Part shown: positions 19,655 through 28,909 of the stretch, piece by piece
Layout of the letters: the number at the start of each line of letters is the position of its first letter
How positions within the stretch are numbered: the stretch's first letter is position 1
Sequence record: PV610739.1
Length of the DNA: 44,529 nucleotides
Direction: 5' to 3' (one strand)
DNA from: Escherichia phage SP1
Made by a program: the position numbers and the translations under genes
The notes under the pieces: model-generated
Told to the model about the DNA's origin: nothing
Databases searched by the model: none
What the model saw: the letters and a program-made list of their open reading frames with translations, nothing else

Positions 19655-20254
19655 ATGGCGCAAGGTACAATCACACTAACGAACGGAAGTAAGACCGTCA
19701 CGGGCGCGGGAACGGCGTTCCTGAGCGAGATCGGGAAGGTCCGCGTATTTGCCCGCATCGACGGCAACGACTACACCGGTAAAATCGCAGCATTCAACTC
19801 TGACACCGTCATCACCCTGGTGGATAACTGGGCCGGACCGACAAAAGCCGGTGCCGCCTATGAGCTAATCGAAGCGCACGACCCGCGATCAAACGAATGG
19901 CCCTATTACTGGCACATGCAATTGCAGGGTGGCGGCGACGTGCAGTTGGCTTTCCGGTCGGAGGAATTGCAATTCGGTAATGGCTACGGGCAGAACATCG
20001 CGGACGGCCCGAACGCTGAGACGAAACAGTTCCCCGTGCAATTCATCGGACTGACTACGGACAAGTGGTGTGACCCTAAACTGGTGTACAACTTCCTTCG
20101 CGGGCACTTCGTCAAGCCGTTTGTCGTCACCGCGCCGGATGGCGAAACAGGTTTATTCGTGGTCGAGCGTTCGAGCTTGTCGTACACTGACAACGGACAC
20201 AACACGGCAACGGTATCCGCCACCCTTAAGACTGCTATTGGATTCGTAAGATGA
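19655..20254 (+). CDS. minor tail protein (lambda M position)
   Basis: 199 aa at M position; N-terminal ~70 aa resemble the N-terminus of the side tail fibre at 27131. Confidence 0.5.
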   Translation: MAQGTITLTNGSKTVTGAGTAFLSEIGKVRVFARIDGNDYTGKIAAFNSDTVITLVDNWAGPTKAGAAYELIEAHDPRSNEWPYYWHMQLQGGGDVQLAFRSEELQFGNGYGQNIADGPNAETKQFPVQFIGLTTDKWCDPKLVYNFLRGHFVKPFVVTAPDGETGLFVVERSSLSYTDNGHNTATVSATLKTAIGFVR

Positions 20255-21039
20255 ATAAACTATATCGTGAGGCGACGCGCTTTGACCCATCGGGCCGCGT
20301 TCGCCTGATTCACATTGATGCGCAGGACGTGGAGCCGGGCGACGGCGCGATCGGCGCGGGCCACCATTATTTCCATTACTGCTTTATTCCGCACACTGCC
20401 GACGATATTGCTGCCGCTGGCGGCGACGAGGACAAGCTAAAGCCAAAATCTATCTTCTTTGGCGGGCAGGAGTTCGAATTCTGGCCCTTCGATTTGTCTG
20501 GCCTCAACTTCTCCACATCAACGGCAGCAGAACCGCAGCTAACTATCGTCGATATTGGCGGGATTATCACCCGGCTATCCCTGAATCACGACCAGCTACT
20601 GGGCGCGAAGGTTGAAATCATAGACACGTTTGCGAAGTTCCTGGACAACGGGCCTGATCCAGACCCAACGCAAAAACGTGTACAGGAGTTTTACATCGAC
20701 TCACAGGTCGGTCGCAATCCGGGCAAACAAATCACCTTCGCATTATCCTCGCCCGCGGATATGGAGGGGCAAGTAGTCCCGCGCCGCCAAATCATGAATA
20801 TGTGCGAATGGGCGCTCAATGGGAAGTATGCCAGCGGGGACGGGTGCACCTGGAACCTTGCACAGCCAGGCATCAAGTATTATGACGAGCGCGGTAATGA
20901 AGTCATCGCGATGGATATGGACCGGTGCGGCGGCTGTTTGTCCGACTGTTATCTTCGATTTGGACAAGGGCTTGCAGATCCGAAAGCGGCGGTACTGGAC
21001 TACGGCGGCTTTCCGGGGTCCAGATTAATTAAGGGGTAG
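20251..21039 (+). CDS. minor tail protein L-like
   Basis: 262 aa; C-terminal Cys cluster (CEW...C...CGGC...C) as in Fe-S-binding gpL; synteny. Confidence 0.7.
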   Translation: MNKLYREATRFDPSGRVRLIHIDAQDVEPGDGAIGAGHHYFHYCFIPHTADDIAAAGGDEDKLKPKSIFFGGQEFEFWPFDLSGLNFSTSTAAEPQLTIVDIGGIITRLSLNHDQLLGAKVEIIDTFAKFLDNGPDPDPTQKRVQEFYIDSQVGRNPGKQITFALSSPADMEGQVVPRRQIMNMCEWALNGKYASGDGCTWNLAQPGIKYYDERGNEVIAMDMDRCGGCLSDCYLRFGQGLADPKAAVLDYGGFPGSRLIKG

Positions 21040-21041
21040 TC

Positions 21042-21782
21042 ATGTTAACGAAAAAGGTTAAGAGCGATATCGCCGCACACGTTGCGGCATGTCTGCCTGA
21101 AGAAGCGTGCGGCCTGGTCGTCATGGTGGGCCGTAAGCAAGTATTTATCCCGTGCCTGAACGTATTCGAAGACCCGACCGGCGCGCGCTCGCGTAAGGAC
21201 GCGTTCACGATTAGTGATATGGCCTGGATGGATGCCGAGGATATGGGCGACGTCGTGCGCGTAGTCCACTCACACCCAGGCCAGCGCGAGCTAACACCAT
21301 CATTGGGCGACGTTAACGGATGCAACGGCAGCGGCATAGTGTGGACCATTACAAACGAGTACGGCGACTTTATCGAGATCGACCCGGAAGACCCGCCACT
21401 GGTAGGTCGCCGATTTGTTCTCGGAATTACGGATTGCTATGGCCTCGTCATGGACTGGCACAAAAAGCAGGGCATAAATTTGCCTGACTTCCGCGTGCCG
21501 TACAACTGGTGGGAGATGGGCGAAAGCCTGTACATGGATAACTGGTATGATGCGGGATTCAGGGAGTGCGCGGAGAATACGCCGGGGGCAATGGTCATCA
21601 TGCAGATTAGCGCGCCAGTGCCTAACCACGCAGGAATCTTCCTACCTGGCAACCAACTACTACACCATATCTACGGCAGCTTGTCGAGCGTGGTCCCCTT
21701 CCGGGCAGGATTTTTCCGCGACAATGTGGTTAAATGGGTACGTCATAAAGACTTACCTGGGGATATTACAGAATGGCAATGA
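21042..21782 (+). CDS. tail assembly protein K-like (JAB/MPN + NlpC/P60)
   Basis: HSHP metalloprotease motif and Cys/His motif DCYGLV...H; synteny L-K-I-J. Confidence 0.75.
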   Translation: MLTKKVKSDIAAHVAACLPEEACGLVVMVGRKQVFIPCLNVFEDPTGARSRKDAFTISDMAWMDAEDMGDVVRVVHSHPGQRELTPSLGDVNGCNGSGIVWTITNEYGDFIEIDPEDPPLVGRRFVLGITDCYGLVMDWHKKQGINLPDFRVPYNWWEMGESLYMDNWYDAGFRECAENTPGAMVIMQISAPVPNHAGIFLPGNQLLHHIYGSLSSVVPFRAGFFRDNVVKWVRHKDLPGDITEWQ

Positions 21783-27050: not shown

Positions 27051-27094
27051 GTTATCATCTACTATATTTGGTTGAGTTTTAGTATTACACCGCT

Positions 27095-27114
27095 CAACCA
27101 AGAATGCAACCAAT
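27095..27114. promoter_or_regulatory. GCAACCAAT motif between divergent lipoprotein and tail-fibre genes
   Basis: CAACCAAGAATGCAACCAAT; exact 9-mer at 27106-27114. Confidence 0.35.
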
Positions 27115-27130
27115 TTATGAGGATTCAGCT

Positions 27131-28909
27131 ATGGCAGCGGGTACACTATCCGTAACGAATAACAGCAAGGCGGTTGTGGGCGTCGGCACAACGCTTACCG
27201 CGCTGAAGGCTGGCGACTTCCTGTCGCTGGTAGTGGGGCAAGTCCCTTACACTGTCGCTATTGCATCCGTAGAAAGCGACACCGCGCTTACGCTGGTGCT
27301 GCCGTTCGATGGCCCAGCGGCAACCGGCCTCGCATGGGATAGCGTGGCGCGCGATACAATGTCGCTTGCGACTATGGGCGTAACCGTCCAGGCGCAGAAA
27401 GCGCTACGTATGCTTATCGCGGATGAAAACAACTGGCGTGCAATCTTCGGCGACGCTGAAGAAATCTCTGTCACGCTCCCGAACGGGCAAGTAATGCAGG
27501 GTATGTCATGGGGCTATCTGTCGCAATTGCTCAAGCAAGTTGACCCAGTAGAGATGCGCAACCTGCAACAACAAGCCGCCGCATCGGAAGCCGCCGCACT
27601 GGTGTCACGCAATGAGGCCGAAGGCTTCAAGAACGAGACGGCAGGCATTCGCGACGCCACCGATCAGATTAAGACTGATACGCAGGCGATCCACGACGCC
27701 ACCAACACCATCAAGACGCAAACCAACCAGATTAAGACTGATACGCAGGCCATCAAGGACGAGACTAACCAGATTAAGACTGACACCGGCGTTATGAGGG
27801 ACGAGGCCAACACCGCGAAGACGGACGCGCAAGCAGCCAGCACTGCCGCGCAGGGATTTCGCGATCAGGCCGAAGAGTGGGCGCAAAGCGTAAACGCCGA
27901 TAATCTGCTAACTAAATCCGGCAACCTGGCAGGCATTGCAGACGTTGCAGAAGCGCGCGACAACTTAGAGATCGGGCTGACGGATACACTTAATATTGGT
28001 GGCCTGGTAACGTCCGGCGGTATCTCCGCGGGTCGAAACGCGTGGGACGGGTCAAACTGGGGGAGCCAATGGGTTATTGCATCATTAGCTATCCTAGCAC
28101 CAGACGGAAACTCATCCCCCGGCTTATATGTGCGTAACAGCAACGGCAGCGGCGGATATGCGTCTGAATGGCTGTATTATGAGAACACGAACGCCTGGGC
28201 GACGAACGCGCGAGTTGTCGGCTATCAATTCCGTTCCCCGAAGGGGACTATGGGATATAATCAGTTGTGGTCTGAAGCTGCGGTACGAGTGGACCCGTAC
28301 ATCGGGCAGCTTAACGCGGAAAACTATCAGTCGTTAATCGCGGGGGCTGCTATGACGCAAGGCCACGGATTTGCGGGCGGTGTTTCGTTCGGGATTATGA
28401 CAACCGGCAGTAACAACTGGCCTCGGGCGCAGATCTCGATCGGCACACAGGACCGTGACGCCGCGGGGAATATGTGGCTTCAGATGCATTTCCGCTTCGA
28501 TGATCAGGGGCGGATCTCTTACAACGGACCACAAGGCACGGGGTCATTCCAGCAAGTGCCCGCATCTGACCGCAACCTGAAGCATGATATTGCCGATGAT
28601 ACCAGCAGCACCGCCTACGACAATATCAAGGCTATGCGATTCCGTACGTTCGTATTCAACAACGACGAGCAAGAACGGCAGCGCCGCGGTGTTATCGCGC
28701 AAGAACTGGAAGAAATCGACCCGCTGTATGTGAAACACCGAGAGTATAACAACCATGAGTTAAACGGGCCATTGATGCACCAGCTTGAACTGGACACAAC
28801 GCCGCTGTTACTCGACACTATGCGGGCGTTGCAGGATGCGATTAAGCAGGTGGAGGAGTTGAAGGCCGAGATCGCAGCTATGAAACAAGTGGAGGAGTTG
28901 AAGAAATAA
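27131..28909 (+). CDS. side tail fibre with C-terminal intramolecular chaperone domain
   Basis: Start ATG 27131 (RBS GAGGA), not track 27104; C-terminal DRNLKHDIADD...IKAMRFRTFVFNN resembles S74 auto-cleaving chaperone domain. Confidence 0.75.
   Translation: MAAGTLSVTNNSKAVVGVGTTLTALKAGDFLSLVVGQVPYTVAIASVESDTALTLVLPFDGPAATGLAWDSVARDTMSLATMGVTVQAQKALRMLIADENNWRAIFGDAEEISVTLPNGQVMQGMSWGYLSQLLKQVDPVEMRNLQQQAAASEAAALVSRNEAEGFKNETAGIRDATDQIKTDTQAIHDATNTIKTQTNQIKTDTQAIKDETNQIKTDTGVMRDEANTAKTDAQAASTAAQGFRDQAEEWAQSVNADNLLTKSGNLAGIADVAEARDNLEIGLTDTLNIGGLVTSGGISAGRNAWDGSNWGSQWVIASLAILAPDGNSSPGLYVRNSNGSGGYASEWLYYENTNAWATNARVVGYQFRSPKGTMGYNQLWSEAAVRVDPYIGQLNAENYQSLIAGAAMTQGHGFAGGVSFGIMTTGSNNWPRAQISIGTQDRDAAGNMWLQMHFRFDDQGRISYNGPQGTGSFQQVPASDRNLKHDIADDTSSTAYDNIKAMRFRTFVFNNDEQERQRRGVIAQELEEIDPLYVKHREYNNHELNGPLMHQLELDTTPLLLDTMRALQDAIKQVEELKAEIAAMKQVEELKK
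27665..27790 (+). repeat. in-frame tandem repeats in tail fibre shaft
   Basis: Three copies of CAGATTAAGACTGA(T/C)AC... encoding QIKTDTQAI-type units. Confidence 0.6.

Follow-up and report, generated by a model that had tools for sequence, protein, structure and literature searches.

The DNA analysed here, referred to as the window, is the complete 44,529-nucleotide stretch of sequence record PV610739.1 from Escherichia phage SP1, a Dhillonvirus genome (E. coli phage). Two of its tail genes, starting at positions 19655 and 27131, encode products of 199 and 592 amino acids (aa) whose first ~75 aa form homologous domains. The 19655 product is a genuine gpM-type distal tail protein (DTP) with this domain added in front, and the 27131 product is the lateral tail fibre. 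The explanation we lean towards is that the DTP copy is an accessory module of the outer rim of the tail, a diverged, cis-fused form of the fibre-anchor fold that would be optional for tail and fibre assembly, and that the fibre docks itself on a shared component. The two genes and their parts are as follows.

19655..20254, plus strand: distal tail protein (DTP; gpM homologue), 199 aa, from its open reading frame (ORF), PF05939 and the match to PDB 23gd_B; annotated 'minor tail protein' in Escherichia phage RuthEpting_Bas85 (Bas85).
19655..19882, plus strand: N-terminal accessory beta-barrel of the DTP (aa 1-76), from fibre homology, an AlphaFold2 (AF2) model and a pyocin profile match.
19883..19906, plus strand: short linker PRSNEWPY (aa 77-84) from the barrel to the gpM core, near-invariant in 17 Dhillonvirus loci.
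19907..20254, plus strand: gpM or tail-tube-fold core of the DTP (aa 85-199, plus stop).
27131..28909, plus strand: lateral (side) tail fibre, 592 aa, from its ORF and start and from phrog_1980 (tail fibre); annotated 'tail fibre' in Bas85.
27131..27358, plus strand: N-terminal anchor barrel of the fibre (aa 1-76) with K26 and the G28-D29-F30 loop, from alignments and profiles.
27359..27550, plus strand: fibre region that follows the barrel (aa 77-140) and has no counterpart in the DTP, from conservation in ES18 gp33.
28565..28732, plus strand: Peptidase_S74 intramolecular chaperone domain of the fibre (aa 479-534), from PF13884 (E=3.1e-12).

An earlier sequence-only reading of the window had noted a conserved N-terminus of about 70 aa in the two products, with the rest of each protein different, and this was borne out. 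BLASTP with composition-based statistics aligned the DTP and the fibre with 31/80 identities (39%, E=9e-9), and no significant match was found beyond the N-terminal segment. The residues listed as conserved in that reading are the invariant residues of the alignment (M1, A2, G4, T5, T9, N10, S12, K13, V15, G17, G19, T20, Y40, T41, S49, D50, T51, T54, L55, V56, G61 and P62). The significance of the pairwise alignment was far above that of shuffled controls. The Smith-Waterman score was 109; when the N-terminal 80 aa were shuffled 5000 times with their composition preserved, the scores were 26.1 +/- 4.7 (z=17.7) and the highest was 56, so that 0/5000 reached the real score. With whole proteins shuffled, z was 13.6. 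Profile searches matched the two N-termini reciprocally, as the DTP N-terminus hit the tail-fibre PHROGs phrog_1980 (1.4e-15) and phrog_28473 (7e-16), and the fibre N-terminus hit the DTP family phrog_9922 at 1.5e-6. The DNA alignment of the two coding stretches was weak, the two being barely alignable, which indicated an old homology at the protein level rather than a recent repeat.

The identity of the 19655 product was established from several lines of evidence. Residues 86-193 match positions 5-106 of the 108 in PF05939 (Phage_min_tail) with E=2.9e-11 and 44.1 bits, above the gathering cutoff of 39. The gene occupies the slot between the tape-measure protein (TMP) and gpL genes, in the order TMP-M-L-K-I-J. 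All 199 residues match PDB chain 23gd_B, 'Distal tail protein gp20' (E=2.2e-129), and the same entry holds 'J-like tail tip protein gp24' and 'Tail protein gp15', which match the gpJ-like and tail-tube proteins of the window. An AF2 model was built with a 53-row alignment, as the single-sequence model was not usable (predicted local distance difference test score, pLDDT, of 37). The modelled core resembles the tail-tube-like fold of T1 gp37 and lambda gpM; its C-terminal part was usable, and residues 79-121 had a pLDDT below 50. Residues 1-72 were modelled at a pLDDT of 85-94 as six strands and one short helix. The PF05939 match, gene slot, fold and 23gd_B match, together with the lack of any stem, shaft or tip after the barrel, identify the 19655 product as a gpM homologue with an added N-terminal domain. 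The linker that joins the two parts has a single variable site (residue 79) across the 17 Dhillonvirus loci, and the short gpM of relatives begins at a WPYW/WPYYW motif, which starts at the end of this linker. In the window a stop codon fixes the start of the DTP at ATG 19655, which is preceded by a G-rich stretch. Database entries for the DTP are 199, 212 or 218 aa long, because upstream starts are possible in some genomes (loci L009, L010, L013, L016 and L018) and are picked by gene callers.

The full 199-aa architecture was found in 160 phage-collection records, and every one sampled was a Dhillonvirus or an E. coli phage of ~44 kb. Those sampled from ~950 other records had the gpM part alone, or the barrel alone within fibre genes (ES18, Salmonella phage 29485). 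The nearest barrel-less gpM homologues are 122-125 aa long, are 55-65% identical in the core and lie on syntenic Dhillonvirus-like contigs. Two of these loci, L003 and L004, come from independent samples and have the same layout. L003 is 95% identical to the window in the tail tube protein (TTP), 92% in TMP, 95.5% in gpK, 95.6% in gpI and 96.4% in gpJ, with 86% identity in gpL over the aligned part; its gpM is 123 aa long, 65% identical and has no barrel. The fibre anchors of L003 and L004 are, by inspection, nearly identical to those of the long-form Dhillonviruses, and no other ORF in either locus carries the barrel. Every long-form Dhillonvirus locus has exactly two barrel-bearing genes, those for the DTP and the fibre.

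In L003 (10362-11609), L004 (6133-7380) and L020 (10368-11615), gpL reaches 415 aa because 153 residues are inserted after about residue 60. Neither Pfam nor PHROG families matched this insert, and its only similarity, a weak one (E=1.6e-4), is to residues 502-617 of the R4C 'Megatron' protein; decoration of the rim in another form is a possible role. The more distant L020 combines this insert with a short gpM, and the short gpM of L002 and L021, also more distant, is accompanied by a plain gpL. The fibres of all three are barrel-bearing. ES18 and HK225 likewise have a gpM of ~115 aa and fibres with the barrel, and the ES18 gp33 fibre is annotated 'present in virion'. The layouts of L002, L003, L004, L020 and L021 indicate three rim configurations that are exchanged as a gpM-gpL cassette, and the short gpM looks ancestral in the wider clade. 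The extra domain is probably dispensable for the core ring, being missing from relatives with 92-96% identical TTP, TMP, gpK, gpI and gpJ. Its absence from relatives with a nearly unchanged fibre anchor suggests that it is most likely an accessory rim module and not the fibre socket.

The DTP barrel is 36-39% identical to the barrel of its own fibre and 44-49% identical to the 'MSAGT...' class found on the fibres of ES18 and other lambdoid phages. As it is closer to the fibres of other phages, it is not a recent copy of the neighbouring fibre gene, and these identities point to an old domain accretion.

To characterize the barrel family, 1.84 billion entries were searched with a two-sequence profile, which returned 3153 cluster representatives at E<=1e-3 and 438 at 1e-10. 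Nearly all members lie at residue 1 of proteins of 250-800 aa, and among the best 150 of the 3153 representatives the barrel and the gpM domain occur together only in the Dhillonvirus DTP. The fibre barrel is also found in the fibres of ES18, HK225, phiES15 and others. A lenient Pfam scan of both copies identified no family, and there is no Pfam entry for the barrel. The structural neighbours of the modelled DTP barrel are N-terminal domains of tailspikes, depolymerases and baseplate proteins. A 20-sequence profile of the barrel matched residues 5-74 of the F2-pyocin side fibre (25ve_A) with E=1.4e-6. According to three 2026 reports on F-type pyocins, the N-terminal domain (residues 2-76) and stem of the side fibre together anchor three trimers to the coiled-coil shaft of the central fibre; each trimer uses two of its three barrels for docking, which gives a pseudo-sixfold ring, and the stem after the barrel also touches the central fibre (PMC13455828, PMC12874032, bioRxiv 10.64898/2026.02.24.707460). 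In the F7 pyocin, Arg30, Lys80 and Arg87 touch an acidic patch, and the F2-pyocin authors described the fibre N-domain as similar to an oligonucleotide/oligosaccharide-binding (OB) fold and likened it to the decorating domain of T5 pb9 (PMC13455828, PMC12874032, bioRxiv 10.64898/2026.02.24.707460). The homology to this docking domain indicated that the shared module is a known kind of virion-anchor domain.

The sequence-only reading had proposed a common attachment domain on the tail tip. The module is indeed discrete and belongs to a family that attaches fibres to the tail tip, as the F-pyocin side-fibre N-domain does, but the idea of a common attachment site fared less well, since the G-D-F loop is lost in the DTP copy and close relatives have no DTP barrel. 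The barrel also occurs in 4-13 tandem copies in proteins of 1000-2900 aa with PKD, SdrD_B or Peptidase_C25 domains (P0011, P0012, P0013, P0018 and P0036), so that the family is not limited to phage fibres. One such protein, encoded on a contig of 120 kb, bears the name 'uncharacterized repeat protein (TIGR01451 family)'. Matches to Phage_attach and EFP_N in these repeat proteins were weak, below or near cutoffs per stretch, and were not used.

Loss of the loop became apparent when alignment columns of 114 fibre barrels were compared with those of 15 DTP variants, with columns considered conserved at >=80% in the fibres. Of 31 fibre-conserved columns, 20 were kept in the DTP copies; those not kept include the G-D-F loop, the V-G that follows it, N10 and W69. 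The loop is 89-92% conserved among the 114 fibre barrels, and its G-D is also present in the pyocin fibre, whereas all 15 DTP variants have -VR in place of GDF. In the profile alignment, R30 of the F2-pyocin fibre, which directly precedes G-D, is aligned with K26 of the window fibre. Assuming that F7 and F2 numbering agree, this position would be that of the Arg30 shaft contact in F7. Judged by these columns, the DTP copy keeps the fold and is without the surface most likely to be functional in fibres, which has been lost.

The ratio of nonsynonymous to synonymous substitution rates (dN/dS) across 17 Dhillonvirus loci was lowest in the gpM core (0.04), intermediate in the fibre barrel (0.08) and highest in the DTP barrel (0.12). 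The DTP barrel thus evolves three times faster than the gpM core, and its ratio indicates that it is kept by selection and is less constrained than the core. Variable sites in the DTP cluster at residues 24-43, and residues 69-98, which include the linker, are almost invariant.

The start of the fibre gene was placed at 27131 and not at the in-frame ATG at 27104, 27 bases upstream (601 aa ORF), because a GAGGA Shine-Dalgarno sequence is located at 27119-27123, seven bases upstream of 27131, and homologues begin with MAAGT or MSAGT. Residues 1-132 of the fibre are 42% identical to the ES18 gp33 fibre (E=6e-35), and the region after the barrel (aa 77-140) is kept in all Dhillonvirus-like fibres. 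The fibre C-terminus resembles PDB 8hqz_d, 'L-shaped tail fiber assembly' (E=3.5e-11). Comparison of the fibre N-terminus with the collar domain of lambda Stf (residues 1-94) gave no match in Pfam or PDB sequences, and the two belong to different barrel families.

The gpJ-like protein, which matches PDB 23gd_D ('J-like tail tip protein gp24') and is called gp24 below, matches the F2-pyocin fibre 25vf_A at E=4e-225. Within it, residues 892-1099 (nucleotides 25060-25683) match residues 977-1184 of 25vf_A, the shaft and distal part, with E=4e-18, and the ES18 J protein shares this C-terminal region homologous to the pyocin central fibre. Thus gp24 offers a pyocin-type shaft on which the fibre could dock. 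The F-pyocin docking site itself (Asp950-961) could not be mapped on gp24, as the alignment begins at pyocin residue 977. Residues 832-1148 of gp24 (24880-25830) form a long, probably helical segment with a very acidic start (DEYMQGLDDEFLTSEDGKHFQEAID), and its distal part is homologous to the central fibres of F2-pyocin, T1 and ES18. The acidic stretch at residues 832-856 is suggestive only as a counterpart of the docking site. The pyocin counterpart of this segment undergoes a helix-to-beta fold switch on firing, and by analogy gp24 might do so too.

The position of the DTP barrel can be approached through related tails. The Ur-lambda collar at the gpV/gpM junction is built from twelve Stf N-terminal domains and touches K2 and W6 of gpM. 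On this basis a gpM-type DTP would have its N-terminus on the outer rim, where the collar sits, and a barrel fused to it should therefore project outward, in six copies. Entry 23gd has two DTP chains per J-like chain, consistent with a threefold (C3) asymmetric unit, and by homology the DTP would form a hexameric ring below the last tail-tube ring. In T5, the OB domain of pb9 touches no protein except those of the tail tube, and it is considered to serve for decoration or for contact with carbohydrates. Under the explanation we lean towards, the DTP ring of the hexameric gpM type would sit between the last tail-tube ring and the gpL/gpJ hub, and the six-stranded barrel of ~75 aa, joined to the DTP N-terminus by the almost invariant linker, would project in six copies at the tube/tip junction as a built-in crown. 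This crown would be an outer-rim decoration comparable to the pb9 OB domain, stabilising or decorating the junction and possibly touching the cell surface or the fibres weakly, and would not be an obligatory fibre socket. The fibre would dock via its own barrel (K26 and the G-D-F loop) and stem, more probably on the central-fibre shaft, otherwise on another component common to the relatives.

Several considerations weigh against this explanation. The anchor family makes protein-protein contacts and forms rings, and contact between the DTP and fibre barrels is therefore plausible. The near-invariant linker and the purifying selection show that the domain is important, as would be expected if it had a structural partner no less than if it were a decoration. 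In L003, L004 and L020 a docking function might be taken over by the gpL insert, and the missing fibre chain in 23gd, for which no candidate was present in the PDB sequence file, may reflect flexibility or a fibreless preparation. The covariation comparison, made with few sequences (17 loci), also had low power.

Three alternative accounts of the shared N-terminus have little in their favour. Recent recombinational exchange or duplication within the genome, between the fibre gene and the gpM gene, would explain the presence of two copies of the module on one strand, at a distance of 7.5 kb. This exchange, which the sequence-only reading had offered as one possibility, is contradicted by the 36-39% protein identity and the barely alignable DNA, by the closer relationship (44-49%) of the DTP copy to ES18-like 'MSAGT' fibres of other phages, and by the fixation of the fusion in 160 Dhillonvirus records; we consider it very improbable. 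Even less probable is that reading's view of the 19655 product as a fibre-like protein rather than a true gpM or DTP. It shares an N-terminus with the fibre, but the PF05939 match above cutoff, the gpM gene slot, the T1/lambda DTP fold, the chain deposited under the name of a DTP and the absence of a stem, shaft or tip after the barrel refute this view. Chance or compositional similarity of two N-termini rich in G, T, A and S has practically no probability. Small residues are abundant in both segments, yet the z of 17.7, the E value of 9e-9 after composition correction, the reciprocal profile matches and the 3153 family representatives all speak for homology.

An alternative of more weight is that the six DTP barrels are themselves the docking partner, a socket beside which the fibre barrels bind by pseudo-homotypic contacts. 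We regard this as unlikely, though it deserves serious consideration, and its specific form, a single mixed collar of 12 members as in Ur-lambda and T5, in which the DTP would occupy six positions in cis and three fibre trimers, with two barrels each, the other six in trans, as more doubtful still. The DTP and fibre barrels are homologous, the family oligomerises into rings with two barrels used per F-pyocin fibre trimer, the Ur-lambda and T5 collars have 12 domains, the gpM N-terminus is at the collar site, and each long-form Dhillonvirus locus has exactly the two barrel-bearing genes that such a collar would use. By a rough estimate that was not computed, a tube of ~9 nm would not be ringed by six domains of ~3 nm and could be ringed by twelve. 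However, L003, L004, L002, L020, L021, ES18 and HK225 have fibre barrels and no DTP barrel, and no compensating change is seen in the fibre anchor of the short-gpM relatives. The DTP copy is without the fibre-specific G-D-F loop. In L015 the DTP barrel differs from that of the window at 15 residues while the fibre barrel is essentially of the common type, so that no covariation was seen in this low-power test of 17 loci. The solved homologue, that of the F-pyocin, docks on the central-fibre coiled coil and not on the DTP, and no fibre chain was deposited with 23gd. If the mixed collar were true, gene fusion would have made half of the fibre collar a permanent part of the tail and would determine how many fibres there are, and the short-gpM relatives would fill the ring with fibre domains alone or dock their fibres elsewhere.

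The tail genes of the window have a lambda-like order: TTP, TMP, gpM homologue, gpL, gpK (JAB and NlpC/P60), gpI and the gpJ-like gene. The stretch at 19-29 kb has 97% DNA identity to Escherichia phages RuthEpting_Bas85 and Haito_Bas83, and 89-96% to many Dhillonvirus isolates. The other tail genes referred to above are located as follows.

15104-15829: tail tube protein (TTP).
16973-19618: tape-measure protein (TMP).
20251-21039: gpL.
22387..25833, plus strand: gpJ-like central tail fibre, 1148 aa, from Pfam FNIII-A_GpJ, Phage-tail_3 and Phage_Tail_Tip.

The minus strand at 25861-27113, between the gpJ-like and fibre genes, encodes a small phage lipoprotein and a DUF6453 protein of 324 aa (E=4e-119). 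At the equivalent place, ES18 and HK225 encode a Cor protein together with small proteins. According to the BASEL paper, small siphoviruses have a locus for receptor-binding proteins that lies downstream of their gpJ homologue. The stretch at 16260-16973, which separates the tail-chaperone genes from the TMP gene, holds only short ORFs, and the syntenic stretch of Bas85 encodes three small hypothetical proteins.

These results describe one small anchor domain that a single tail uses twice, supplied in trans on the fibre and fused in cis to a ring protein. They also present the outer rim of the tail tip as a swappable cassette among near-identical phages, which carry the DTP barrel, the gpL insert or neither. 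For the engineering of BASEL-type coliphages, DTP residues 1-76 are a probably dispensable, surface-exposed site, and fibre residues 1-140 are the conserved anchor to retain in swaps of the fibre tip. The barrel further points to a large uncurated domain family without a Pfam entry. The fusion of a fibre-anchor domain to a DTP is an ordinary kind of modular phage evolution, and DTPs with extra modules (T5 pb9, Sf11 gp17, evolved Dits) are already known, as is a deposited structure of this exact protein. No paper was found in the literature for PDB 23gd; as a solved structure exists, the structural question has probably been answered by the depositors. The homology of the extra module to the phage's own fibre anchor, the loss of the loop and the three interchangeable rim configurations seem to be undescribed in the searchable literature, and the DTP barrel is not mentioned in the BASEL papers or in the 2025 Dhillonvirus tail-spike paper.

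Among known systems, the closest are the 'minor tail protein' of Bas83-85 and other Dhillonviruses and the gp20 of 23gd_B, which are practically the same protein, with 199 aa, the same position and the same two-domain layout; at the sequence level gp20 has no material difference from the DTP of the window. The plain PF05939 DTPs, lambda gpM and T1 gp37, have the core fold, gene position and presumed hexameric ring in common with it, but are 109-117 aa long and have no N-terminal barrel, whereas the Dhillonvirus DTP has 84 extra residues in front. The F-pyocin side fibre (PyoF13, PA0643 or PA0646; N-domain in 25ve) has a homologous barrel at residue 1 followed by a stem, as in the 27131 fibre. 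In F-pyocins the barrel is on the fibre alone and the DTP is plain (113 aa), while in Dhillonvirus it is on both fibre and DTP; the pyocin barrel docks on the central-fibre coiled coil, a dock that is probable for the Dhillonvirus fibre. The Ur-lambda Stf and T5 p132 collars resemble the proposed Dhillonvirus crown in that small domains at the tube/DTP junction hold side fibres. Their domains have an Ig-like fold unrelated in sequence to the barrel, and come in trans, as 12 copies, from the fibre or a separate protein, with no fusion to the DTP. Sf11 gp17 and the 'evolved' Dit of Gram-positive phages are, like the Dhillonvirus DTP, DTPs that have gained modules for host-recognition hardware. 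Their modules (a helical adaptor; galectin or CBM domains) are C-terminal or inserted and are a demonstrated attachment site, in contrast to the Dhillonvirus module, which is N-terminal and for which the evidence argues against an obligatory attachment role. T5 pb9, like the Dhillonvirus DTP, is a DTP of tail-tube fold with one small extra outer beta-barrel.

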